From: a virus | Lineage: Duplodnaviria; Caudoviricetes | Length of the DNA: 38,322 nt | Strand: one strand, 5' to 3' | IMG/VR virus record: IMGVR_UViG_3300008255_000062 | Span: 1-38,322 of that record | In this document: in pieces, positions 7,741 to 37,177 of the stretch | How positions within the stretch are numbered: position 1 is the first letter of the stretch | Layout of the letters: the number at the start of each line of letters is the position of its first letter | Program-made: the position numbers and the translations under genes | Notes under the pieces: model-generated | Seen by the model: only the letters and a program-made list of their open reading frames with translations | Database searches by the model: none | Told to the model about the DNA's origin: nothing

Positions 7741-7767
7741 GGTGCACATATATTCTAGTTAGCATTA
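7741..7767 (+). other. attI-like recombination site A
   Basis: GGTGCACATATATTCTA|GTTAGCATTA; near-identical copies at 13234 and 17508; marks the abrupt switch to AT-rich DNA. Confidence 0.65.
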
Positions 7768-7804
7768 ATATTTTTAATAATTTTTGCCTACGCACGTTGT
7801 TTTT

Positions 7805-8437
7805 TCAAAACAATTCAGTTTGCACCTGTGGTTTATTATTAATGATTCCTAATGCTGTTTCAAGTATAGTTTTTCCAGCTTCAAAGTCTACTAAATTACG
7901 TGCAATCTTATCTTTTCCTTGCTCTCCTTTGTAACTTCTTAAATCTATTTCGTGAAATTCACACCATTTGTCAACCTCCTTTTCACTTTCCATAAAATTA
8001 GATTTTCTATTGCTTAATATATTTGGTAAATTAAAGTTAGTCCAGTATAAATGTCTACCCCTTTTCTTTGCAGGTATTAACGGCTCATAAAATGGTATCA
8101 CATTCTCAACACAATATTTACCATTAAAATAGTGTTGTAAAAATAAAATTTCTTGATATAATCTCATATCGGGGTATTCAGTTGTTGTTGATTCGTGCCT
8201 TGCAAAACGTGCCTTACTATGTGTTGGGCAAGGTGGCGAAGTCCATATAAAATCAAATTCTTTGTAATGGTCTAATAAATATTGGTGTGCATCAGCAACT
8301 ATAACCGTATCATTTGAAAATCTTTCTTTATACATTCGTGCAAGTTCTTCATCTAATTCTACTGCTGTAATTTCGTGGTCATTACCTCATTTATAACGGT
8401 TGCCACCCAAACAAGCATATAAGTTTAATATCTTCAT
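7805..8437 (-). pseudogene. C5 cytosine DNA methyltransferase with an in-frame TGA at codon 17
   Basis: ATG 8437 gives MKILNLYACLGGNRYK*GNDHEITAVELD (motifs I/II), in frame with ORF 7805..8335, which has IWTSPPCPTHS (motif IV) and VENV (motif VI); TGA at 8387-8389. Confidence 0.85.
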
Positions 8438-8493
8438 AGTTTTCTAATTAATAAATACAAATACCCTCCCTAAAAAATTAAAAAATACATAAT

Positions 8494-8552
8494 GCTAACA
8501 AAGTATATATTTCAGTTGAGTACAACCGAAAATATATACTCGGCACGTTAGC
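8494..8552 (+). other. attC-like site A (59 bp)
   Basis: GCTAAC-AA-AGTATATATTTCAGTTG-AGTA-CAACCGAAAATATATACT-CGGCAC-GTTAGC: imperfect palindrome with inverted cores, asymmetric spacer and one extra base. Confidence 0.8.
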
Positions 8553-9228
8553 GTTGTTTGTCTTCCCATGCTTTGTGAGCCTTCATAATGGACTCCACTA
8601 GAATTTTTGGAATAGTGCCATATTTCTTTTTGAGTTCTGCTTTGATTTTAGAGAAATCCTCCGTGCTATCGAACGCAGAACACCGCTCGTCTAGCAAGAT
8701 CGCCTCTTTCTCAAGATCTTCTATTCCTCGGTTTTTCTGTTCCTGCAAAGGGTCTTTTGCGTCATCGGTGATATGCAGGTCGCCTTTATGCCAGAGTTCT
8801 AAAGCAGCACCGAAGCGCATAGCCGCATTGCGTAACGCATCACCTATTACCTCTTTTTCCCTGGAGCCTACCTCTTTGTATTGAGACTCTTCAGCATTTC
8901 CGTAGCCTAGCCTAGTGATCCCGCAGACCGTGAGCTTGATCCACAAGCCACCCGAAGCGTCAAAAAGAGGCAGGCCGTCAGGCCCAAAAGCAAGAGGCTC
9001 CCACGACCACATAGGATCTACATCCAGCAGGCGGTCTGTGAGTGCAGCATGGCCTACAAAGTCAAGATGGACCAGCTTGGGGTGATGCCAGCCTCCGCAT
9101 ACCGAGCAGTTTTTTTTCTCAGTAGCAGGACACTGCATCTGCGCCTTGCTTCCCTTGGCGAGTTTGCCAATCTGGTGCGCTGGGAAGGAATCTCTCATGA
9201 GCTGGACTCTGAGTTCGTTGTCGATCAT
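8548..9228 (-). CDS. Rad52/Sak-like single-strand annealing protein
   Basis: LDFVGHAALTDRLLDVDPMWSWEP...LTVCGITRLGYG...KEVIGDALRNAAMRFGAALELW; CxxC insert near the N-terminus. Confidence 0.75.
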   Translation of the reverse strand: MIDNELRVQLMRDSFPAHQIGKLAKGSKAQMQCPATEKKNCSVCGGWHHPKLVHLDFVGHAALTDRLLDVDPMWSWEPLAFGPDGLPLFDASGGLWIKLTVCGITRLGYGNAEESQYKEVGSREKEVIGDALRNAAMRFGAALELWHKGDLHITDDAKDPLQEQKNRGIEDLEKEAILLDERCSAFDSTEDFSKIKAELKKKYGTIPKILVESIMKAHKAWEDKQR

Positions 9229-9455
9229 TGCACTACTTCTCCCTCAAGAATTGTATGGCACTCCTCTCCTACGTCTGCTTCTTGCTTCAGGGCTGCAAGT
9301 TCTTTCTTAAGAAGATCATTTTGCTGGACATAGTACATTATGGAATTTCGCACACCATCGCCACACTCTCTGATATAGTCTTGGGAGCATGAGACAAACT
9401 CCTCTGCATGATCGAATCCGATTGCCGACACGAATGTCATAAACCTTTGCTTCAT
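9225..9455 (-). CDS. Hypothetical protein
   Basis: Likely start MKQRFMTF at 9455; ATGA overlap with the next gene. Confidence 0.55.
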   Translation of the reverse strand: MKQRFMTFVSAIGFDHAEEFVSCSQDYIRECGDGVRNSIMYYVQQNDLLKKELAALKQEADVGEECHTILEGEVVQ

Positions 9456-9468
9456 CGTGTTGCGTCTT

Positions 9469-9681
9469 TTACCCTTCATCGGTGTCTCCCATAGTCCAGT
9501 GTGCGGACCAGTTTGTTTTGTTCTTCTCACCATCGTAGTTAACTTCAATAGACATATAGTTCTGTCCACACTCTGGGCATCTATTGCGTCTGTATGTAGC
9601 TTCATCAGCAGGCACGAAGTTCGTCTGAACTACCAACCGGTGAACCATGGTGCTACAATATGGGCAATAGCCTTTGCTCAT
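9469..9681 (-). CDS. Zinc-ribbon protein (similar to the NrdR N-terminus)
   Basis: MSKGYCPYC...YRRNRCPECGQNYMSIE resembles CPxC...RRRxCxxC...TxE. Confidence 0.6.
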   Translation of the reverse strand: MSKGYCPYCSTMVHRLVVQTNFVPADEATYRRNRCPECGQNYMSIEVNYDGEKNKTNWSAHWTMGDTDEG

Positions 9682-9718
9682 TAGTAGCCACCGCAATTCT
9701 TGTTGAAAGAAAACGACA

Positions 9719-9967
9719 TCAGAATGGAAGATCGTCTTGGACAAGATTTATTTTTTGTTGACTATCTCCGCCACCATTTGACATTGGGATAGATGCAGTT
9801 CCAGATAAGAACTTCTTACCTGACTTAGATTCCTTGATCCACAAGGCAACCCTTAAGTCTGTTCCGTCAAGAGCTGTCATCTTTCCTGTGTAGTCCGGCT
9901 GATTGTCCTTTGTCTTGTCTTCATTCTTGAATATTGTGATGTCGCCTGGTCGTGGTTCGTAAGCCAT
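9719..9967 (-). CDS. DUF736-like small ssDNA-binding protein
   Basis: IFKNEDK...QPDYTG...VALWIKESKSGKKFLSG with acidic DDLPF tail; GGAGG RBS. Confidence 0.75.
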   Translation of the reverse strand: MAYEPRPGDITIFKNEDKTKDNQPDYTGKMTALDGTDLRVALWIKESKSGKKFLSGTASIPMSNGGGDSQQKINLVQDDLPF

Positions 9968-10158
9968 TATTGGCCTCCTTCTGAATCGGACTCTGTTTCT
10001 TTCTTGTCCGTGGTTGTGACAACCTCAACCATTGATGATAGATCATCAATGATCTTTGATGCCGTGTTGTAAGTGATGTTGTTTGTGATAAAGTCAACAA
10101 GCCCAATCAGCCTATCCCCCTTAATCGCATAGAACTTATCTTTGTCTGCTCGTGCCAT
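9967..10158 (-). CDS. Hypothetical protein
   Basis: Start MARADKDKF after GAGG; TAATG coupling to the SSB-like gene. Confidence 0.55.
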   Translation of the reverse strand: MARADKDKFYAIKGDRLIGLVDFITNNITYNTASKIIDDLSSMVEVVTTTDKKETESDSEGGQ

Positions 10159-10234
10159 TTTATTCCTCAATTTGATAGTGTTGTTTGTCGATCCCAATCT
10201 TTCATGTCTTTTGATCTATCTGAAAACGAATTTC

Positions 10235-10738
10235 TCATACTTCAAATCCAAAGTGGTTAAGGATATACGTGTCGATTAGTTTTCCAAGTTTTGTGCAGTA
10301 GTAAATTTGTTCGTCTTCTGGTCGTGATCCATTAGACAGGTTAGTCCGGTAGGTGATGGCGTACCTGGTATCGTCTGACTTTGCAGCAGCTGTCTTTACC
10401 TCGATTGAAAAGATCTTGATAGGAACGCAATTCCTTTTGAATCTGCCCTTTACTCTCAGGAACTCGTATGGTCTTTTGATCTTTCCGTTTCTACGAAGGA
10501 AGACAAATCCCTCAATCCCCTCTGCTACAGATGCTCTTGAGTCCTCATGGTACTGGCGTAGCTTCAGGGCTGCAAGACCCTTAGCCATAATCTCCCCAGT
10601 CAAATGGCCCCTACTTCGCATCATGTCGAACGTGTACCAATCGGCATTGGACATTGTTACCCAAATTCGCTTGGATACGCCATCACCTATTAGATTGATC
10701 CCTTCTCTCATTATACCAAATGTAGTATTATTCTTCAT
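10235..10738 (-). CDS. Hypothetical basic protein
   Basis: Likely start MKNNTTFG at 10738 within ORF 10235..10852. Confidence 0.55.
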   Translation of the reverse strand: MKNNTTFGIMREGINLIGDGVSKRIWVTMSNADWYTFDMMRSRGHLTGEIMAKGLAALKLRQYHEDSRASVAEGIEGFVFLRRNGKIKRPYEFLRVKGRFKRNCVPIKIFSIEVKTAAAKSDDTRYAITYRTNLSNGSRPEDEQIYYCTKLGKLIDTYILNHFGFEV

Positions 10739-10895
10739 CGTCCGCAATAAGTTTCTCGTAGAAATCAGAGTCATCAACAAGCATATTGCAGTGCTCCACT
10801 CCAAGCATTGTACACTCTGGACAATCCAGTCCAGATTCAGACGCTGGCGCACGATATGTCGTTTTGCACTTGCTACATCTCCAAAGCAGGTTCAT
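10728..10895 (-). CDS. Small zinc-ribbon protein (55 aa, not in ORF track)
   Basis: MNLLWRCSKCKTTYRAPASESGLDCPECTMLG...DDEE*; ATGA overlap with the upstream gene. Confidence 0.65.
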   Translation of the reverse strand: MNLLWRCSKCKTTYRAPASESGLDCPECTMLGVEHCNMLVDDSDFYEKLIADDEE

Positions 10896-11185
10896 AGGTC
10901 AGACTCCCTCACCCACTCAGCGTGGGTTTTGATGTGACGATTTGGTTTCATGTGTTCATTGTCTCCTGTCAATATCAGATCTCTAAACATCTTCTGGATT
11001 GCAGGCTCTTTGCTTATCTTTGGGTTTCCGTTTAGCAACACCCCGCCAAGAGCCACACGCTCCCCCCATTTGTTGCGATGGGTCTCAGCTGATAGCGTGC
11101 ACATCTTTCTTGGCAACCACTTGTCCTGCGGAGTCCAATCATAAGGATCAATGCAGTGAGCGTGTTGTTGCTTGTGCCAATCCAT
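10892..11185 (-). CDS. Hypothetical protein
   Basis: 97 aa, AGGA RBS, follows DnaB in the operon. Confidence 0.55.
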   Translation of the reverse strand: MDWHKQQHAHCIDPYDWTPQDKWLPRKMCTLSAETHRNKWGERVALGGVLLNGNPKISKEPAIQKMFRDLILTGDNEHMKPNRHIKTHAEWVRESDL

Positions 11186-11199
11186 TCTATCCTGCTTAC

Positions 11200-12456
11200 C
11201 TACTCAACGTCAAACCCGTCCTCGTTTACATAGTCTAGGTCGTTGATTGTGAAGTTCTTAGCATCGGTCTGTAGGATGAATGCTGGATTTATCAAAGTTG
11301 GGTCGTGTGGGCTGCGGTGTTTGTCGATCTTGCCAGCTACCACATCACCTTCCTTCCACATACAAATGCACAAGTCGCTTGCGTTGCTGATAGAGTTTCC
11401 ACCAAGCGCATCAAAGCGATTGAGAGGACGTTGGACGGCCTTACCGCCTGGATCATATTGAGTCCTTGAGGCAGACTTATCAACTTGGGTCAGGAGGATC
11501 GTTACCACTCCAACTCGCTTAGAGAGTTCCTTCAGCCCATTGGCAATCCTGTCTACTCGCTGAACTCCGCTAAGTCCTGGGGTTGCTATGAAATCAAGAT
11601 AGTCGATGCCTATCAATCTGAGAGACGGATTGTCCTTCTTCTTTACTTTAATGCAGGTCTCTATTTGGTCTAAATTCATAGGCTTATAGACTCTGTGAAG
11701 TCTAGAAAGATGTGAGCCGGAGATCCGTCTTTTTGTTTCCTGCCACCTATCTGGAGCGTTGTAGATTTCGTAACCAAGAGCCTTGAGAGATCCCTGCTTT
11801 GCATAGCTCAGAACTTCTCTTCTGCCCTCGTCATCTGCCGACATCTCGAACGAGAAGAACATTGCCTGTAGATCTTCGTTGATGGACAAGGCGTTTGAGA
11901 TCATGTTCTGCAACAGGGTTGTCTTAAATGTTCCGTTGGTAGCAATGATTGTGATAAGCTGTCCCAGAGAGCATCCTCCAGTGATCCTGTCTATTATGTC
12001 GTAGCCGAATCTGATGCCTCCGGTAGTTGCCCGAAGCATCGCCTCTTCCTCAACCGCTTGCAACATTTCGTCAACGCTCATAACGTCAGTATTTGACGCT
12101 ACTAGGACTTCAACGCTCTGGTCCATTGCCATCACTATAGCCTTTTCTGCGTCCCGAATCATCTCCCTTCGTTTTGACAGGCTACGGAGCCGTTTAAGAG
12201 CCTCTAAGAACTGGGTAATGTAGAGGTCTACACCTTCCTCGATAAATCGTCTAGCGTAGCCTGAGACCTCATAGCGGACTGCTACGTCATCGAACTGGGG
12301 AAGCTCTCCCATCCTTGTTGCCTTCAGTGCATTTATGCTGTCCCTGTGGAAGAAAAGATCATCAGAAAGTTCAGATAGGCTAGACTCCATCGTTAGGCAA
12401 TATCCGATGGCTCGTAGCTCTGTCTCTTTGTCGGATGGAAGCTCGTATTGGATCAT
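11200..12456 (-). CDS. dnaB: DnaB-like replicative helicase
   Basis: Start MIQYELP overlaps the initiator stop (ATGA); ATNGTFKTT (Walker A), FFSFEMS, IGIDYLD, LKELSKR...LLTQ, NASD, DKHR. Confidence 0.9.
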   Translation of the reverse strand: MIQYELPSDKETELRAIGYCLTMESSLSELSDDLFFHRDSINALKATRMGELPQFDDVAVRYEVSGYARRFIEEGVDLYITQFLEALKRLRSLSKRREMIRDAEKAIVMAMDQSVEVLVASNTDVMSVDEMLQAVEEEAMLRATTGGIRFGYDIIDRITGGCSLGQLITIIATNGTFKTTLLQNMISNALSINEDLQAMFFSFEMSADDEGRREVLSYAKQGSLKALGYEIYNAPDRWQETKRRISGSHLSRLHRVYKPMNLDQIETCIKVKKKDNPSLRLIGIDYLDFIATPGLSGVQRVDRIANGLKELSKRVGVVTILLTQVDKSASRTQYDPGGKAVQRPLNRFDALGGNSISNASDLCICMWKEGDVVAGKIDKHRSPHDPTLINPAFILQTDAKNFTINDLDYVNEDGFDVE

Positions 12457-13067
12457 TGTGATGCCTTGTTGCTTTCTGCCTTGCTTCTGATTGCTTTCTG
12501 GAGAGGAGTAAGCGATTCTGCATTCTTCTGTACATTGGAATGTCTGTCCCAAGTTAGGAGCTTCTGCTTCCAGCTTCTAACCTTGTTCCCGTTCGAGTCA
12601 ACCCAGTTCCCAACTTCAAAGTATGAATGAAACTTCATAGGGTCCACGGAGTAACCCTTCTCAGCTACGTATGCCCTGACCTCTTCAAAAGTAGGGTGTG
12701 TAGTCTCTTCACTCTTTCTGCTTCTGTACTGCTTCTGCTTCTGCTTCTGGCTAGAGTTTGCTAGAGCACTGCTAGCTTTTGCTATAGCACTGCTAGGATT
12801 TGCTATAGCACTGCTAGCTTTTGCTATAGCACTGCTAGCTTTTGCTATACCTCCACTAGATCCGGCAGCTTGCTTTTTCGCTCGGAAATCGTGCGCCTCT
12901 TCGATCAGAGATCGAGCGTATGGCATCGAAGACGAATCAGGATCTGCTCGGATAAGCTCAACAGCTAGCCTCATCACCCACTCGCCGCGAGCAGAATCAT
13001 TTGGTAGCTGCACCAACTCAGACAGCAAATCGGCTGGCTGGATGCGGTAAAAGAACGGTTTTTTCAT
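12453..13067 (-). CDS. Lambda-O-like replication initiator
   Basis: Start MKKPFFY; AGSSGG linker, translated iteron block, C-terminal PTFEEVRAY...FHSYFEVGNW...VRSWKQKLLTW; directly upstream of DnaB. Confidence 0.8.
   Translation of the reverse strand: MKKPFFYRIQPADLLSELVQLPNDSARGEWVMRLAVELIRADPDSSSMPYARSLIEEAHDFRAKKQAAGSSGGIAKASSAIAKASSAIANPSSAIAKASSALANSSQKQKQKQYRSRKSEETTHPTFEEVRAYVAEKGYSVDPMKFHSYFEVGNWVDSNGNKVRSWKQKLLTWDRHSNVQKNAESLTPLQKAIRSKAESNKASQ
12757..12860. repeat. Iterons / probable replication origin
   Basis: Four 21-bp units with consensus TTTGCTATAGCACTGCTAGCT plus one degenerate unit, inside the initiator gene; adjacent CTTCTG repeats. Confidence 0.8.
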
Positions 13068-13107
13068 GGATGGTAGGCCTAAAAAAGATTGCGGAATTGC
13101 GCTGTCA

Positions 13108-13215
13108 TCATAGCAGGCCAGCCATTCCAACAAAACCCGTCACCACCAAAAGAATGATAACGCACCATTCCCATGCAACGTGGGCCTTTTCTGATTTTGT
13201 GAGTGGTCTAGTCAT
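13108..13215 (-). CDS. Small membrane peptide (35 aa, not in ORF track)
   Basis: MTRPLTKSEKAHVAWEWCVIILLVVTGFVGMAGLL*; AAGG RBS; one hydrophobic helix. Confidence 0.5.
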   Translation of the reverse strand: MTRPLTKSEKAHVAWEWCVIILLVVTGFVGMAGLL

Positions 13216-13233
13216 GATTTCGCCTTGTTTTGT

Positions 13234-13260
13234 GGTGTACATATATCCTAGTTAGCGGTA
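13234..13260 (+). other. attI-like recombination site B
   Basis: GGTGTACATATATCCTA|GTTAGCGGTA at the boundary of an AT-rich insert. Confidence 0.65.
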
Positions 13261-13261
13261 A

Positions 13262-13489
13262 TTAACCCCACCGAAACGGATTGATTGCTTTTTCAAATGA
13301 GCCAACAAAGCCGTACATAAGTAATATAACGGGAATAGTTACTACTACAAGAATGTAACTTAGTGGATTAAATGGATTAAGTCGATATGCTTTGGAATAT
13401 CCTTTCCCTAATCTTTTTAATCCACCTTTATGTCGTTGCTCATTTGAAACGACTTGCACTATTTTAAATTTGCTAAATAATTCTTTCAT
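13262..13489 (-). CDS. Cassette-borne small membrane protein
   Basis: 75 aa, AT-rich, no Shine-Dalgarno; RLNPFNPLSY followed by one transmembrane helix, ends NPFRWG. Confidence 0.7.
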   Translation of the reverse strand: MKELFSKFKIVQVVSNEQRHKGGLKRLGKGYSKAYRLNPFNPLSYILVVVTIPVILLMYGFVGSFEKAINPFRWG

Positions 13490-13517
13490 AACAATTTGAT
13501 TTTAAGGTAATAACTAC

Positions 13518-13612
13518 CGCTAACCGCACCTATAAGCAAGTTTGCGGACAGGTTTTCTGCAACTTGAAACGTGGTGCAACGCAACCCTGCTCATAGCTGC
13601 AAAACGTTAGTG
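13518..13612 (+). other. attC-like site B (95 bp)
   Basis: CGCTAAC-C-GCACCTATAAGCAAGTTTGCG...CGCAACCCTGCTCATAGCTGC-AAAAC-GTTAGTG; 21-nt arms with 17/21 complementarity. Confidence 0.8.
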
Positions 13613-13625
13613 ATAATTTGGTGCG

Positions 13626-13769
13626 TCATGCTTTGACTCTGCCTTTGAGGTACTTCCTTTCGTCCTCTTCAATCATCTCTGCAATCGCTTCCACAGGCCG
13701 TGTCTGTGGTGCGAGTTTTGCCCCCTCTCGCATTATCTTGCGGATGGATGCTGTGTCCAACTTCTTCAC
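13626..13769 (-). CDS. Hypothetical protein (47 aa, not in ORF track)
   Basis: GTG start, MKKLDTASIRKIMREG...KGRVKA*; fills the gap in the operon. Confidence 0.45.
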   Translation of the reverse strand: MKKLDTASIRKIMREGAKLAPQTRPVEAIAEMIEEDERKYLKGRVKA

Positions 13770-13772
13770 TTC

Positions 13773-14051
13773 TCACACATACATCACCAAACTGCCGTCA
13801 TCAAAGTCAACACCGCATCTATGTAGGTCGATTAGCTCTTCTTCCGTGGCATCGAGCATTTCGCAGTCAACATCGAGGAAAATTTTGTCCTGCTCGGCCA
13901 TGCAAATCATTTTCCAGCTATCGTTTGGGTACAGCTTATCCAGCATCAGGAAAGCACACAGGTCTGGCCTTGGGTGCATCTTTTCCTCCACTCGGTCAAA
14001 TTTATTGAATTCATTTGACCATTCATTAAATACTTTTTCTATGTGTTTCAT
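13773..14051 (-). CDS. Hypothetical acidic protein
   Basis: 92 aa, GGAG RBS, HPRPDLCAF...LHRCGV; shares the MKHI start with the repeat genes. Confidence 0.7.
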   Translation of the reverse strand: MKHIEKVFNEWSNEFNKFDRVEEKMHPRPDLCAFLMLDKLYPNDSWKMICMAEQDKIFLDVDCEMLDATEEELIDLHRCGVDFDDGSLVMYV

Positions 14052-14054
14052 TTT

Positions 14055-15062
14055 TCATTCTCCTTTTTCCCTGTGGTCCCATGAGTCAGGGTGCAGTGGA
14101 TCTCCTGCATAGGTGCGTGATGTCTGGTTTCCCTTCTCGTCAAAGGTGGATACCATTGACCACTGGTGCAGTGGATCTCCTGCATAGGTGCGTGATGTCC
14201 TGAAACCCTGACCATCGTAGGTGGCTACCATTGACGCATTGTGCTGTGGATCTCCTGCCCATGTGAGTGATGTCCTGCAACCCTGACCATCGTAGGTGGC
14301 TACCCATGACCACTGGTGCAGTGGATCGCCTGCCACTATTTGTGATGTCTGGGTTCCCTTCTCGTCAAAGGTGGCTACCCATGACGCATTGTGCAGAGGA
14401 TCTCCTGCATAGGTGCGTGATGTCCTGCAACCCTGATCATCGTAGGTGACTACCCATGACCACTGGTGCAGTGGATCGCCTGCATAGGTGCGTGATGTCC
14501 TGCAACCCTGATCATCGTAGGTGTCTACCCATGACGCATTGTGCAGAGGATCGCCTGCATAGGTGCGTGATGTCCTGCAACCCTGATCATCGTAGGTGGC
14601 TACCCATGACGCATTGTGCAGTGGATCTCCTGCATAGGTGCGTGATGTCCTGCAACCCTGACCATCGTAGGTGGCTACCCACGACCACTGGTGCAGTGGA
14701 TCGCCTGCCACTATTTGTGATGTCTGGTTTCCCTTCTCGTCAAAGGTGGATACCCATGACGCATTGTGCTGTGGATCTCCTGCCCATGTGTAGGATGTCG
14801 GGAATCCCTGATCATCGTAGGTGTCTACCCATGACGCATTGTGCAGAGGATCTCCTGCCCATGTGAGTGATGTCCTGCGACCCTGACCATCGTAGGTGTC
14901 TACCCATGACGCATTGTGCTGTGGATCTCCTGCATAGGTGCGTGATGTCTGGTTTCCCTTCTCGTCAAAGGTGTCTACCCATGACGCATTGTGCAGAGGA
15001 TCGCCCTCGTGTGCATGGCTGATATGTCTTCCTTGTTCGTCATGTTTGTCAATGTGCTTCAT
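14055..15062 (-). CDS. YD-like 25-aa tandem repeat protein 1 (12 repeats plus N-cap)
   Basis: 75-bp units encoding T(Y/F)DxxGxxTSxxxAGDPxHxxSWVx; GGAG RBS. Confidence 0.85.
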   Translation of the reverse strand: MKHIDKHDEQGRHISHAHEGDPLHNASWVDTFDEKGNQTSRTYAGDPQHNASWVDTYDGQGRRTSLTWAGDPLHNASWVDTYDDQGFPTSYTWAGDPQHNASWVSTFDEKGNQTSQIVAGDPLHQWSWVATYDGQGCRTSRTYAGDPLHNASWVATYDDQGCRTSRTYAGDPLHNASWVDTYDDQGCRTSRTYAGDPLHQWSWVVTYDDQGCRTSRTYAGDPLHNASWVATFDEKGTQTSQIVAGDPLHQWSWVATYDGQGCRTSLTWAGDPQHNASMVATYDGQGFRTSRTYAGDPLHQWSMVSTFDEKGNQTSRTYAGDPLHPDSWDHREKGE

Positions 15063-15105
15063 TTTTCATTCTCCCTTTTTTTGGTTGTTCTTCATAACTG
15101 GTGTG

Positions 15106-15444
15106 TTAGCCTCTAAACTCCAACTCCCCAACCAGCGGAGCCATTGGAATACAAGTGTTGTCATTTTCCAATGACCAGCGCCCTTTTTCTGCATCCCAAA
15201 CAATACTGTATGTCTCGCTGTTCCACCTCACAGTATCGTGCTCCCAAAACTCGTTGCCTTCACCGTCATAGAATCCGGTGAACATCTCAATATCCAACAG
15301 TATCGCCTTTTCAGTCACTGCATCGTACCCGGCAAAACCCATCAAGCACCCGTCTTTGACGTTGTGGTACAATTCTGCAATCGCGTTGTGATAAAACAGG
15401 TCCTCCCCATTCTCACGACTTCTGCCCCTCAGTTTAATTTCCAT
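15106..15444 (-). CDS. YopX-family protein
   Basis: MEIKLRG start and MFTGFYDGEGNEFWEHDTV, a variant of the YopX QYTGLKDKNGKEIYEGDI motif. Confidence 0.7.
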   Translation of the reverse strand: MEIKLRGRSRENGEDLFYHNAIAELYHNVKDGCLMGFAGYDAVTEKAILLDIEMFTGFYDGEGNEFWEHDTVRWNSETYSIVWDAEKGRWSLENDNTCIPMAPLVGELEFRG

Positions 15445-15649
15445 TGTCTTCACCTCGCCAGTATGCATCATCAAGTTTATTAAATAGCCGCGCCAGTTCA
15501 GGTTTTTCGCTGTCTCCGATCATTTTGCGAACTTCTTTTCTGCAACACGCCACCGCCTGGTTCCATGCGGCAGTCATGTAAATTTTATTCTCCTTACTTA
15601 TTTCTTCTGGGTACGCAAATTCTGTTTTAAGAAATTCATCAAATTTCAT
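15434..15649 (-). CDS. Hypothetical protein
   Basis: Start MKFDEFLK, ATGA-coupled; contains AAWN. Confidence 0.55.
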   Translation of the reverse strand: MKFDEFLKTEFAYPEEISKENKIYMTAAWNQAVACCRKEVRKMIGDSEKPELARLFNKLDDAYWRGEDNGN

Positions 15650-15930
15650 CTTCCCCCCCCTAAATAGTTGCTTGTTACTATCTCCTCTAACTTTTCTAAA
15701 GCACGCAAAGCCGGAATCCAATCAACGCTATCTGGTTTTTCTTTAAGCTGATTCCAATCCCAGGCCAAAACATTCAACACGGTTTCTTTGTCAATAAGCA
15801 CCATATCTTCGCGCATAATCCTTTCCTCCCACCATTCGTTGTTTGACGCTTCTTCTTCGCTAATTGGTGGTGGAACTGGCTCATTGTCGCTGTGGCAATC
15901 ATGAGTTGTTTTTCCAAAGCATCCGGTCAT
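15646..15930 (-). CDS. Hypothetical protein
   Basis: GAGGA RBS; tightly packed in the early operon. Confidence 0.5.
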   Translation of the reverse strand: MTGCFGKTTHDCHSDNEPVPPPISEEEASNNEWWEERIMREDMVLIDKETVLNVLAWDWNQLKEKPDSVDWIPALRALEKLEEIVTSNYLGGGR

Positions 15931-15931
15931 T

Positions 15932-16234
15932 TTATCCTCTCAGAGTGGTTAGGATGGACGATTTCAACTCTTTGGCCATGTTCTTAATACATGACTCGGA
16001 AAATACGACCTCTTCTGCCCATGCGACAAATTCTGTTTTATCGGCTTGATAGCGGATCTCTAATCCGGTAGACGATTCATTGATAGGCTGCAAAAGCTTG
16101 AAATCATCTTCATAAACACGACTCAAGAATGCTATCGTGCTCTCAAGTGCCTTTTTTTCACTTTCGTGGATTGATGTAGCGACATCGAATATTCTTGTTT
16201 TTGCTTCCATCTTATGGCATTGGTAGAATTTCAT
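15932..16234 (-). CDS. Hypothetical protein
   Basis: 100 aa; GAGGATAAA before the ATG. Confidence 0.6.
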   Translation of the reverse strand: MKFYQCHKMEAKTRIFDVATSIHESEKKALESTIAFLSRVYEDDFKLLQPINESSTGLEIRYQADKTEFVAWAEEVVFSESCIKNMAKELKSSILTTLRG

Positions 16235-16332
16235 TTTATCCTCTTTGTTGTGTGGTGTAAGATTGTGGGGTAGGCCTGCCCACCACAGACATCCTACCCC
16301 TGCACTGTGGTCCGAGGGACTCTGCCCAGTGC

Positions 16333-16590
16333 CTAAAGCTCCTCTTCTAGCAGGTTTTGGAAGCCAGTCATGTCTCCATATTGCCCTTTTTCGGCTTCAT
16401 TCAGGTAGTACATGAAATCGCTATAGGCTCCAGACACGAAAGAATATCTTATGCTGGCTCTGACAATTTTTGCCAGTTCTACCAGATAATGGGCCTGTTT
16501 GTCCATTCCCATTTGCATAAAATAGCGTGACTGCTTGAGAATTTCCCTGGTTGCAACCGCAGATATTCTTGTTTTAAGTGGTTTTTTCAT
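16333..16590 (-). CDS. Hypothetical protein
   Basis: 85 aa; GAGGG RBS. Confidence 0.6.
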   Translation of the reverse strand: MKKPLKTRISAVATREILKQSRYFMQMGMDKQAHYLVELAKIVRASIRYSFVSGAYSDFMYYLNEAEKGQYGDMTGFQNLLEEEL

Positions 16591-16617
16591 GCTGTCCCTC
16601 TTTTTCGTGGTGTATTG

Positions 16618-16782
16618 TTAAATATAGCTACCAAATATGGTATTTAAAAGTCTTTTCATCACATTGGGTCTTTTTGTTGATCTTTTGTAGTCCGCTCTAA
16701 TATATATGCTGCTTTCGTCCAGAACATACCGGCCTTTTTTCAGCACATACCAGTGAGTACCCCATTTTTCACGTGTTTTCAT
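16618..16782 (-). CDS. Hypothetical basic protein
   Basis: Likely start MKTREKW after GAGG. Confidence 0.4.
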   Translation of the reverse strand: MKTREKWGTHWYVLKKGRYVLDESSIYIRADYKRSTKRPNVMKRLLNTIFGSYI

Positions 16783-16845
16783 GCCTCTATCCAATCCGTT
16801 TCTCGCTGGCCGCCAAATGCATTGCATAGCTCTCTGACAGTTTTC

Positions 16846-16986
16846 TCAGGCATTTATTTCTACCCTGTAGCAAGCCTCACACCACTGGTGATGGCGAGAT
16901 ATTTCTGCTCCGCATTTGCACCTTTTGGACTCTGCGCTTATGCAGTAGATTTTGTGCTTGATTTTTGGCGTTGGTTCTTGTGGCAT
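16846..16986 (-). CDS. Small Cys-rich (zinc-finger-like) protein
   Basis: MPQEPTPK...CKCGAEI...WCEACY; GGAG RBS at the end of repeat gene 2. Confidence 0.55.
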   Translation of the reverse strand: MPQEPTPKIKHKIYCISAESKRCKCGAEISRHHQWCEACYRVEINA

Positions 16987-16987
16987 C

Positions 16988-17470
16988 TTATTCTCCTTTT
17001 TCCCTGTGGTCCCATGAGTCAGGGTGCTGTGGATCACCTGCCCATGTGTAGGATGTCGGGAATCCCTGATCATCGTAGGTGGCTACCCATGACCACTGGT
17101 GCAGTGGATCGCCTGCCCATGTGAGTGATGTCCTGCAAAACTGATCATCGTAGGTGGCTACCCATGACCACTGGTGCAGTGGATCGCCTGCCCATGTGAG
17201 TGATGTCCTGCAACACTGATCATCATAGATGGCTACCCATGACCACTGGTGCAGTGGATCTCCTGCATAGGTGCGTGATGTCTGGTTTCCCTTCTCGTCA
17301 AAGGTGTCTACCCATGACGCATTGTGCAATGGATCTCCTGCCCATGTGAGTGATGTCTGGTTTCCCTTCTCGTCAAAGGTGGCTACCCATGAGTCAGTGT
17401 GATGTTGGTCACCATTATGTGCATGGCTGATATGCCTTCCTTGTTCGTCATGTTTGTCAATGTGTTTCAT
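16988..17470 (-). CDS. YD-like 25-aa tandem repeat protein 2 (5 repeats plus N-cap)
   Basis: Same N-cap (MKHIDKHDEQGRHISHAH), C-cap (HPDSWDHREKGE) and repeat unit as 14055..15062. Confidence 0.85.
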   Translation of the reverse strand: MKHIDKHDEQGRHISHAHNGDQHHTDSWVATFDEKGNQTSLTWAGDPLHNASWVDTFDEKGNQTSRTYAGDPLHQWSWVAIYDDQCCRTSLTWAGDPLHQWSWVATYDDQFCRTSLTWAGDPLHQWSWVATYDDQGFPTSYTWAGDPQHPDSWDHREKGE

Positions 17471-17507
17471 TTTTCATTCTCATTTCGGATTTGGGTAACT
17501 TGTCCAA

Positions 17508-17550
17508 GGTGTACATATATTCTAGTTAGCGGTAATTAATCCCACCGAAA
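17508..17550 (+). repeat. attI-like site C plus cassette-B-like stub; 41/43 identical to 13234-13276
   Basis: GGTGTACATATATTCTAGTTAGCGGTAATTAATCCCACCGAAA; no partner attC found downstream. Confidence 0.75.
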
Positions 17551-19381: not shown

Positions 19382-19601
19382 CGTCTTGTTCCCCGTACTG
19401 AGTTTCGATCATCTTGAGCAGAAAGTCCTCGCTAGTCATCTTTGCTTATGCGTTCATTGCAAATGCGTCTGAATAGGTGGTTGCGCTAGTCACGGCTGCA
19501 ATGTATCCGTCTTGGGTGATTGCCACCACGAAGAATGCCTTTGAGGTCGTGATTGCGTGTTGGGCCGATAGAATAGCCTCTTCCTCTGTTGGTTTATGCA
19601 A
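19374..19601 (-). pseudogene. Small gene split by an in-frame TAA, or two short ORFs
   Basis: TTG start, HKPTEEEAILSAQHAITTSKAFFVVAITQDG...AMNA*AKMTSEDFLLKMIETQYGEQDDG*; stop at 19446-19448; overlaps both neighbours. Confidence 0.35.
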
Positions 19602-21159
19602 GATGCTGCTTCCATATGCTAAGGATTTCTTCGTCTGTTCTTATGTCTGGTCCGTCGGTATGGTGAAGAGCAACGTAATTTACCCCTGTAACAGCACATT
19701 CTGCCTCAACAAGAGATGCACACTCAGATTTGGATGCGCTGTAAATTGCGCCAACACGGCTATAAATCTCTTCTTTTTCCGTATATCCAACTAGGCTTAC
19801 CTCTGGATACTTCTCTATTAGCGGTAACACCTTCTTTATGAAGTAGGTCTGGTCCTCGATTGTGCCGAAAATGAGAACCTTAGAGAATCCATCTGCCAAA
19901 GCTGCACCAATTGAAAGGTGTGTTCTCTTGTGAGGTTCGACCCTACCCACCACACCAGCCACTCCCTGAGTGTCGTTTTGTGGATCTATCGTGATCTTTG
20001 GAGCTGCGTTAGGGCAAATAAACGACTTGGTGCTGATTCCGTGCCACCGCCTGTGAGATTCGTTCAGGAAATGGACTTCGTCTGCCCAGGGGATGTCTTT
20101 CTTCGATAGATCCCAGTATTCTTTTTCATGACTGGTGATTATGATCTTGCGTGCCGGTGGTATGTTGGCGAACTCTGTTCTTCCAACAATCAGAAAGGCA
20201 TCCTCGCTGAACTCTAGCGTGGAATGATGCCCATAGTTACACTTTCCCTTGGGGTATGCGTGTGGCCCGTATAGGCAACAGTCGTATTCATCGCATGAGT
20301 TCAGGAGATCCGTAAGGCTAATCAACGCATCTGTTGCTCCGCACTGAAGTGTGCTTGGCATGAGGATGTTTACCTTCTTGCGCTTAAACGATGCAAGGTC
20401 TAGGCTCATAAGCTTTAAGCGTTCTATTTCCGACTTGTAGCTAGTTTCCTCGAATCCATTAAGCCGGAGCAGCCGTTTCTTTAGCTCATCATGCTTCTCT
20501 CTGGCCTTAGACAGCATTGATTCGCTTCTAATACGGTAGTTGAACAGCGGTCCGCCCTCTATTCTTACAGACTTTGCTCCTAGCCTAGCTGCTCTAAGCC
20601 AGAACTCCCAGTCTTCGTACCCCTCGTTCATAGATGTTGAGAACCCGCCAATCCTACTAAATAATGACCGTTTCATCAGAGAGCAGTATGGTACGTTTGA
20701 CTTCTCCTTTAGAGCGTCAATGGTCATTGGCCCCGTATCCCATTGTCTGCATACATCCCCGAACATATACGCAGTTGGATATGCAATATCAGCCAATGTT
20801 ACTGAAAGAGTTTCCACAGCAGCTGTTAGGTATCCTGGTGCGATAGTATCGTCTGAGTCTAGGAACAGCAAGTATTCGTAGTTACCATCTAGGTTTGCTC
20901 CGAAGTTTCGAGCCTCAACTAATCCTCTGTTGTGGCAAGAATATGCGGCAATGCGGTTATCCTCGTTGCAAAAGCCGATGGCAATATCTGTTGTGTTGTC
21001 GGTAGACCCATCGTCTATGATGATGACTTGAATGTTGGTATGTGTCTGCGATAAGACAGATTCCACGGCCTCAGACAGATATTCAGCCTGATTGTAGCAG
21101 GGAATTACTACTCTGACTCTTTTTTTAGGGTCGGTAATTGGCAATGCTCCACTTAGCAT
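19594..21159 (-). CDS. Fused glycosyltransferase (GT2/GT-A plus GT4-like GT-B domain)
   Basis: VVIPCYNQAEYL, IIDDGSTD, FLDSDD, YEDWEFW; C-half VGRVEPHKR...SECASLVEAEC. Start may be 21159 or 21216. Confidence 0.85.
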   Translation of the reverse strand: MLSGALPITDPKKRVRVVIPCYNQAEYLSEAVESVLSQTHTNIQVIIIDDGSTDNTTDIAIGFCNEDNRIAAYSCHNRGLVEARNFGANLDGNYEYLLFLDSDDTIAPGYLTAAVETLSVTLADIAYPTAYMFGDVCRQWDTGPMTIDALKEKSNVPYCSLMKRSLFSRIGGFSTSMNEGYEDWEFWLRAARLGAKSVRIEGGPLFNYRIRSESMLSKAREKHDELKKRLLRLNGFEETSYKSEIERLKLMSLDLASFKRKKVNILMPSTLQCGATDALISLTDLLNSCDEYDCCLYGPHAYPKGKCNYGHHSTLEFSEDAFLIVGRTEFANIPPARKIIITSHEKEYWDLSKKDIPWADEVHFLNESHRRWHGISTKSFICPNAAPKITIDPQNDTQGVAGVVGRVEPHKRTHLSIGAALADGFSKVLIFGTIEDQTYFIKKVLPLIEKYPEVSLVGYTEKEEIYSRVGAIYSASKSECASLVEAECAVTGVNYVALHHTDGPDIRTDEEILSIWKQHLA

Positions 21160-21259
21160 TGCAGATACCACATCGACAGCTGGATTTGCTGATTGAGATT
21201 CGGTATTGCCGATCATTCAGACATCCAGGGCAGATTGCTATCTTCGTTGAGCCAATCAT
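21125..21259 (-). CDS. Small zinc-ribbon protein (44 aa, not in ORF track)
   Basis: MIGSTKIAICPGCLND...CRCGICNAKW...; GGAGG RBS. Confidence 0.6.
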   Translation of the reverse strand: MIGSTKIAICPGCLNDRQYRISISKSSCRCGICNAKWSIANYRP

Positions 21260-36381: not shown

Positions 36382-36749
36382 TAGACTCACTAATTTCGAG
36401 CAAAGTAGCAACTCCTGCAAATGATGCCCAGTATATCATGTATATTTTAGTTATTGGGGCTTTGTGCGCTTGGTTCTTGTGGCTCAAATGGGGTCAGAAG
36501 AAGTACACGGGCGAAGAGAGAAGGAGCGAATGTGTGACTCACTCGGAGGAAATGCTGGCTATGAAAAAAGACATCGAGCATCTCCAAGAGGGCCAGACTC
36601 GAATTGAGACCAAGGTAGACAAGGGGTTTTCTTCTGGTGATGCCCGCATGAAGGCCCTAGAGGACTCTGTGCAGGCTCTAGCTGTTCGGATGGCCAGCAT
36701 CAAATGCGGTGTGCTAGAGGCTATCCAACAGGCTCTAAAGGATAAATGA
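36378..36749 (+). CDS. Putative holin-like membrane protein
   Basis: One transmembrane helix (YIMYILVIGALCAWFLWL) then a coiled coil; upstream of the endolysin. Confidence 0.5.
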   Translation: MIDSLISSKVATPANDAQYIMYILVIGALCAWFLWLKWGQKKYTGEERRSECVTHSEEMLAMKKDIEHLQEGQTRIETKVDKGFSSGDARMKALEDSVQALAVRMASIKCGVLEAIQQALKDK

Positions 36750-37177
36750 TGACCCGCATACGCTACCGAGACCTGACTATAGAGCAGAGGCTTTTCGTCT
36801 GCAACGGATGCGGTGGGAAGGGTGGGATTAAAGTGCCGTCCTTTGTCTGGAATACGGCCTGCCATCACCATGATTTCAATTATTGGCTTGGGTGGCGTGA
36901 GCAAGATCGAGAGAAAGCAGACGGCCAGTTTCTATCGGAGATGCGGAGAGAGATTCGGTCTGATGCTCATTGGATCAGATGGCCTCACTTGTACGCCATT
37001 GCTCAAGCCTACTATTGGGCTGTGAGGATAAAAGGATCAGGCTATTTTCATTTAGGAGATAGAGAGCAGACGCTAGAGGATCTGATAATGCAGATGCAGG
37101 CCAATGAGCCTAAGCGCAGTGGGATGAAATTCACAGGCAAGCCGTGCGCTCCTTGCGATGAAAGGGTGATGGGTTAG
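36746..37177 (+). CDS. Phospholipase A2-like / DUF1353-like protein
   Basis: CNGCGG...ACHHHDFNY...REKADGQF...YYWAVR, containing the CxxHDxxY motif. Confidence 0.7.
   Translation: MMTRIRYRDLTIEQRLFVCNGCGGKGGIKVPSFVWNTACHHHDFNYWLGWREQDREKADGQFLSEMRREIRSDAHWIRWPHLYAIAQAYYWAVRIKGSGYFHLGDREQTLEDLIMQMQANEPKRSGMKFTGKPCAPCDERVMG

Follow-up and report, generated by a model that had tools for sequence, protein, structure and literature searches.

The window analysed here, the whole stretch of 38,322 nucleotides, is a complete 38.2-kb tailed-phage record (IMG/VR IMGVR_UViG_3300008255_000062) with terminal repeats at its ends and a completeness rating of 100%; the runs containing it are labelled as aquifer or groundwater metagenomes. 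Its + strand carries the genes for the terminase, a P22-like portal and the capsid, and its minus strand carries an early arm with RusA, an annealing protein, SSB and DnaB. Within this early region, the repeat GGTGYACATATATYCTA|GTTAGC occurs in three exact copies, all on the + strand, at the coordinates and with the motifs given by an initial annotation, which took the repeats for attI-like landing pads that are loaded with single gene cassettes by a host integrase. In the following, we refer to the repeats as pads. The pads and the features that surround them, with GC3 denoting the GC content at third codon positions, are:

7741..7764, + strand: pad 1, attI-like, with L box ACATATA, a 5-bp spacer and a G|TT crossover at G 7758; 63 bp before the RusA start
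7759..8547, + strand: cassette 1, 789 bp, GC content 0.31
7805..8437, minus strand: C5 cytosine methyltransferase-family gene with a TGA at codon 17 (8387-8389), GC3 0.22, no Shine-Dalgarno (SD) motif
8493..8553, + strand: hairpin 1, an attC-like structure of Bacteroidota type with the stem in +4 register, its right core overlapping the annealing-protein stop codon
8548..9228, minus strand: single-strand annealing protein gene (phrog_3290), a native flank
13234..13257, + strand: pad 2, attI-like, crossover G at 13251; 35 bp before a 35-codon open reading frame (ORF)
13252..13606, + strand: cassette 2, 355 bp, GC content 0.37
13262..13489, minus strand: 75-aa gene, hydrophobic in its C-terminal half; 82 database matches including itself, no Pfam or PHROGs family
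13518..13612, + strand: hairpin 2, an attC-like structure of Bacteroidota type with the stem in +4 register; an entry-like 12-mer comes after it
17508..17550, + strand: pad 3, crossover G at 17525, followed by 26 bp of the cassette-2 entry, with no hairpin behind

The 23-mer of the pad did not occur in 100 shuffles, even when 3 mismatches were allowed. The three pads have a common left edge, are identical at 15-16 of the 17 upstream bases and lead into different cargo, and each is by anatomy a simple site of the classical attI kind (L box, 5-bp spacer, G|TT, no hairpin); together with their upstream DNA, they showed no folding (z scores of 0.35, 1.12 and −0.42). Pads 1 and 2 each head one AT-rich gene and a hairpin, with cassette GC contents of 0.31 and 0.37 versus a comparison value of 0.47, and the entry of either cassette is the exact inverse of the left core of its hairpin (10/10 positions at both). 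Both hairpins fold better on the minus strand, which is the gene-coding strand: hairpin 1 with −14.6 versus −11.1 kcal/mol (z scores of −6.7 versus −4.3), and hairpin 2 with −18.8 versus −12.6 kcal/mol (−2.9 versus −0.3). These inverse cores and strand-biased hairpins bear out the view of the initial annotation that the inserts are opened cassette circles, as well as its observation that both genes, lying on the minus strand, run opposite to the attC top strand and along the early transcript. Standard minus-strand cassettes could be discarded, since the pad would then be half a hairpin without a partner arm. Rfam gave two weak matches in the window, both below threshold and neither relevant; the arm of hairpin 2 had no viral match, and blastn against phages or plasmids returned nothing useful.

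Each pad lies 35-63 bp before the start of a minus-strand early gene, and part of hairpin 1 scores as terminator-like, as would be expected if the repeat served the phage as a promoter or operator, with the hairpins being terminators or chance neighbours. We regard this explanation as very improbable, because no minus-strand promoter-like site falls on any pad (the region holds 19 such sites versus 19.7 expected) and because it leaves the two 10/10 inverse cores, the drop in GC content and the family match described below unexplained. An additional regulatory role of the repeat may exist.

Both cargo genes share a GC3 of 0.22 and the lack of SD motifs. Two signs of decay had escaped the initial annotation. 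First, codon 17 of the methyltransferase gene is an in-frame TGA where its homologues have Trp; this TGA is unchanged in contigs of three sequencing runs (X1, X4 and X6), and reassignment of the codon is ruled out, with 15 of the 38 window genes ending in TGA. The gene is therefore likely dead. Second, pad 3 has 43 bp in common with pad 2, the last 26 of which stem from the 3′ end of the 75-aa gene; homologues of this gene end in the same way. Pad 3 is a relic of a loaded pad and not a clean empty site.

The pads and hairpins belong to a wider family. A relaxed form of the junction motif gave about 210 viral loci, of which 118 were taken and the 67 with enough flank were counted: an inverse core lay downstream of the junction in 16/67 and upstream of it, as the control, in 3/67, a count that replaced an initial, stricter hairpin scan (11/114). 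The longest ORF is reversed in 13 of these 16 loci, which represent 14 distinct sites. At positions that had not been part of the search, the pads agree with the viral family at T−15 (12/14) and G−14 (10/14), partly at −13 and not at −12. The nearest outside site (L209) differs from the pad at 2 of 17 bases, and one viral record, G004, holds four pad-like sites, one of them likewise 2/17 bases from a window pad. The window thus displays the docking-site pattern that accompanies reversed genes in phages (TATAW-NNN-W|GTT), and its hairpins have the stem shifted by +2 to +4 with an AAC/GTT core that characterizes a Bacteroidota Xer-like cassette system, not the canonical attC geometry with its near-symmetric spacer and extrahelical bases. 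The register is +4 in both window hairpins and in 11/14 phage sites, and +2 or +3 in 8/8 plasmid sites, compared with 0 in 5/9 canonical-type sites, which form a noisy control. On a profile of 22 outside sites, the two hairpins are the top scores of the window (31.2 and 30.9, the next being 20.4); that this outside set was selected by our own filter has to be counted against the interpretation given below. Bacterial members of the Bacteroidota were represented by plasmids (8 loci, standing in for chromosomes), where the same type of enzyme lies upstream of the site, the genes point forward and hairpins are found in 5/8 loci; the L box and the spacer length of the pads recur in a site on a Chryseobacterium plasmid. 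As for the cargo, Flavobacterium phage stinky9-1 and another locus (L246) carry members of the methyltransferase family as reversed cassettes, and the closest cultured homologue of the methyltransferase gene (62%) sits in a reversed array of five hairpins.

Two side observations concern related elements. On a Flagellimonas plasmid (L331:2904-5816), a recombinase of the Xer-like type adjoins erm(F) and one shifted-stem hairpin. Single canonical-type attC hairpins occur in unrelated phages (L005:3854-3909, L014:12737-12795, L025:16863-16922 and L036:18743-18798), where they are reversed relative to the annealing-protein gene.

The phage encodes no tyrosine recombinase, as the initial annotation had stated: PF00589 had no match at E≤1 in the whole complete genome, in a search that was positive in 14/14 control genomes, and none of the 50 ORFs was assigned to this class by PHROGs or Pfam. 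Among the records with a relaxed-motif site, such an enzyme is encoded in 4/41, or in 1/9 of the near-complete ones. The recombinases beside pad-like sites are Xer-like and about 270 aa long, and in five loci (L240, L251, L279, L329 and Polaribacter phage Freya) they start 36-51 bp from the site; the copy in L251 (2269-2973) is truncated at 234 aa, directly past the HxxR motif. The IntI insertion of about 42 residues is missing from 9/9 site-adjoining recombinases and present in 5/5 true IntI proteins, the former having 61-67 residues where IntI has 108. Their best family match is NF040815, below its cut-off, and TIGR02249 is also below cut-off (4/4). Hairpin geometry and neighbouring recombinases together point to an Xer-like enzyme without the IntI insertion rather than IntI, so that the recombinase of the window cassettes is likely a compact, borrowed Xer-like protein. 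Of the earlier proposal of a host integrase in trans, the action in trans is supported and IntI as the enzyme is not.

It is improbable, in our view, that a canonical host IntI loads the pads at present, as first proposed. In favour of this idea, the cores are RYYYAAC/GTT-like, an SD-using host could carry IntI, and L boxes with TAT/TAA are found beside true intI genes. Moreover, phage attC sites can be IntI1 substrates: the available text of Qi et al. (2023; PMC9892861) reports 17 CALINs (clusters of attC sites lacking integron integrases) among 10,705 phage genomes, with methyltransferase cargo and IntI1 recombination for 5/6 sites. However, the site that failed to integrate on whichever strands were tried, P12002L_attC1, is the sole tested site of the hairpin type seen here, a +3-register hairpin on the other strand. 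The published attC2 of P12002L overlaps a docking-type site, so its reaction with IntI1 may have been attI-like. The +4 register of the window hairpins is also unlike that of canonical-type sites, the eight runs discussed below show no polymorphism, and the comparison with attI sites next to intI genes suggested by the initial annotation gave no pad match, whether among 151 genomes belonging to a single phylum or across the genome collection. Set against classical integrons, the window has the simple site with L box, 5-bp spacer and G|TT, the inverse cores round each cassette and the strand-biased hairpin. It differs in having no intI, a stem shifted by 4 nt, three separate sites and, beside related sites, enzymes without the IntI insertion; and the classical layout, with the gene upstream of and co-oriented with attC, is not found, both genes being reversed. 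By analogy, we regard these as real cassettes and real attI-like sites that would work in an integron-like manner, outside the classical integrons.

Cassette exchange at G|TT works in other phages of this system. Isolates of Polaribacter phage Freya share a site and diverge exactly at G|TT (5/10 isolates examined): Freya_8 and Freya_10 have one first cassette, Freya_6 and Freya_5 have others, and Freya_5 also lacks 3.2 kb. An annotated "integrase" heads this isolate-variable array of reversed cassettes (L330, L341-L344), which makes Freya a ready cultured model; in the available text of the isolation paper (PMC8776804), the integrase is taken as a sign of lysogeny and the word integron does not appear. 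The dispersed, enzyme-less layout, claimed for the window by the initial annotation, recurs in G004 and in the cultured phage P12002L (NC_028924). The latter has no PF00589 match and carries two identical 62-nt docking-type sites 8 kb apart that diverge past G|TTA into different reversed cassettes (L403:29175-30060 and 37200-39250).

Several described systems come close to what we observe. The P12002L CALIN has attC-like hairpins, methyltransferase cargo, no integrase and a lytic-type phage in common with the window, which differs in its one cassette per pad and its SD starts. The two window hairpins may count as a CALIN (at least two clustered attC sites, no integrase), although they stand 5 kb apart, are non-canonical and each have their own attI-like site. 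The delta-attI cassettes of class 1 and 2 integrons, as far as described in the available text of PMC12901181, likewise involve short attI fragments of fixed length that are repeated away from the integrase and are still functional; there, the fragments take the place of a cassette's attC within a mobile integron, whereas the window pads precede complete cassettes and lie 4-5 kb apart. Insertion at attG sites (bioRxiv 10.1101/2022.09.11.507474, available text) also yields lone cassettes away from an integrase gene with a G|WT crossover, but the attG targets have only GWT in common, compared with 15-16/17 upstream bases in the pads. A literature search covering few subscription papers brought up no account of reversed cassettes in phages, of attI sites dispersed over a phage genome or of a Bacteroidota Xer-like cassette system, the phage CALINs (PMC9892861) being the only related report.

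We favour, with moderate confidence, the explanation that the repeats are attI-type docking sites and the inserts single gene cassettes of a Bacteroidota and phage integron-like system, which docked in place by means of a borrowed Xer-like recombinase. As in integrons, the gene-coding strand of a circular cassette would form the hairpin, and the recombinase, supplied by the host or a co-infecting phage, would join the cassette at G|TT to the pad, which is double-stranded; the cassette gene would then end up along the early transcript and need no promoter of its own. One pad may have been acquired and later copied. The common left edge of the pads, their 15-16/17 identity, the different and intact cargo behind them and the entry-like 12-mer behind hairpin 2 all speak for pads that were there first.

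Alternatively, the pads may have travelled with their cargo, as blocks of pad, cassette and hairpin from a Bacteroidota phage that landed at native G|TT positions, so that the pads were never landing sites here; we consider this possible, though unlikely. The same recombinase could have used G|GT at the left edge of the pads, or short-homology recombination could have brought the blocks in. Several observations that weigh against docking in place are accounted for in this way. When pad 2 and its cassette are excised together, a 49-codon ORF reappears whose ATG overlaps the upstream stop, a coupling seen in 11/18 neighbouring genes, whereas excision of the cassette alone leaves 8 codons. Behind hairpin 1, the native stop codon of the annealing-protein gene follows with no entry-like sequence. 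All three pads begin with GGT, a tolerable crossover for IntI1, which needs a match at the first triplet base only (PMC2811028, available text). In addition, pad 3 reproduces part of a loaded pad, the cargo is foreign (GC3 0.22, no SD) with one gene broken, and attI fragments of fixed length are known to accompany moving cassettes in integrons of classes 1 and 2 (PMC12901181). Against travelling pads, the entry-like pattern of the 12-mer behind hairpin 2 is found in 12/19 family entries versus 44/573 background sites, and the family shows no enrichment of G at −17 (3/14). Furthermore, the 35-codon downstream ORF may be a separate gene, in which case the restored frame would arise by chance about one time in three, and near-identical pads with different cargo require a site-specific swap somewhere.

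Other points also count against docking in place by the Xer-like system. The methyltransferase family is mostly not cassette-borne, a hairpin being present at 1/80 of the nearest viral loci (0/80 by the stricter scan), and the TAT/TAA in the L box is not peculiar to this system, given its occurrence in canonical attI sites. We also found no trace of movement in this phage. Contigs were compared for 8 of the 14 listed runs, with thin cover in the 7 runs other than X1, which is possibly the source run; contigs drop rare variants, and small-share runs and uncovered bins are evidence neither way. Contigs cross from pad 1 into cassette 1 (X1, X2, X4), from hairpin 1 into the backbone (X1, X3, X6), over hairpin 2 (X1, X7) and over pad 3 (X1, X5), and in none of the 8 runs does a joint skip a cassette or do the empty alleles sought at the suggestion of the initial annotation appear. 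Nor did the virome search that it had proposed bring up further cargo: the exact pad had no match in the viral collection, and a looser form had 2, inside a coding region. Among 25 exact matches in metagenomes, 3 come from the contig of the window itself, 1 (L099) repeats site 2 together with its cassette, and the other 21 lack a cassette. Two exact matches in the genome collection, in one genome with eukaryotic-looking flanks, were judged to be due to chance; L084 and L085 are contigs of a 16-Mb bacterial genome record with eukaryotic-looking DNA, probably contamination. The sites look static and decaying at present in the lineage of the window phage; they may be fossils, which would limit their value as a test case.

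A further objection comes from the translation signals. SD motifs precede 15/37 starts of the window phage versus 24/222 internal ATGs, compared with 1-7% of the starts in seven other carriers and 2/49 in P12002L. Since SD signals are missing in Bacteroidetes and Chlorobi (PMC3155529, available text), we infer a host outside the typical Bacteroidota, with cassette cargo from Bacteroidota phages, and this host possibly lacks the recombinase. The difference from the eight other carriers also indicates that the cassettes probably crossed into the window phage from another host lineage. Searches with the portal, annealing protein, terminase or glycosyltransferase named no host, and, as another point to be held against docking in place, no close relative of the phage was found in the collections searched. 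Matches to the annealing protein are at most 79% identical, with one pad-like match (3 mismatches) among 80 loci; the capsid retrieved a single fragment outside the early arm, the helicase a single match (59%) and the 48-aa gene adjoining hairpin 2 a single match.

Elsewhere in the window, we noted a family-2 glycosyltransferase gene (19594-21216) and, beside the endolysin, a prokaryotic phospholipase A2-like gene (36746-37177, below cut-off). Two paralogous genes with 75-bp (25-aa) RHS/YD-like repeats and a common start region (14055-15062 and 16988-17470) apparently vary in copy number, judging by joints in X2 and X5, and a 21-bp tandem repeat in the gene preceding DnaB (12750-12859) has one copy fewer in X2 and X3.

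Taken together, the findings point to an integron-like gene-capture system whose enzyme lacks the IntI insertion and that would escape tools based on IntI, and the cultured phages Freya, P12002L and stinky9-1 make the system testable. It offers a possible mechanism by which lytic phages could acquire small genes, methyltransferases among them, in an orientation that already matches their transcript. The window adds that parts of this system reached a phage with translation signals unlike those of all 8 other carriers checked. In its boldest form, the proposal is that a small phage of an SD-using host outside the Bacteroidota maintains, within its early operon, three docking sites that still work and, by means of a borrowed Xer-like recombinase, takes up single reversed cassettes from the pool of Bacteroidota phages. 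We hold this to be doubtful; if true, it would constitute a cross-lineage route of gene uptake that needs only a 24-bp site.

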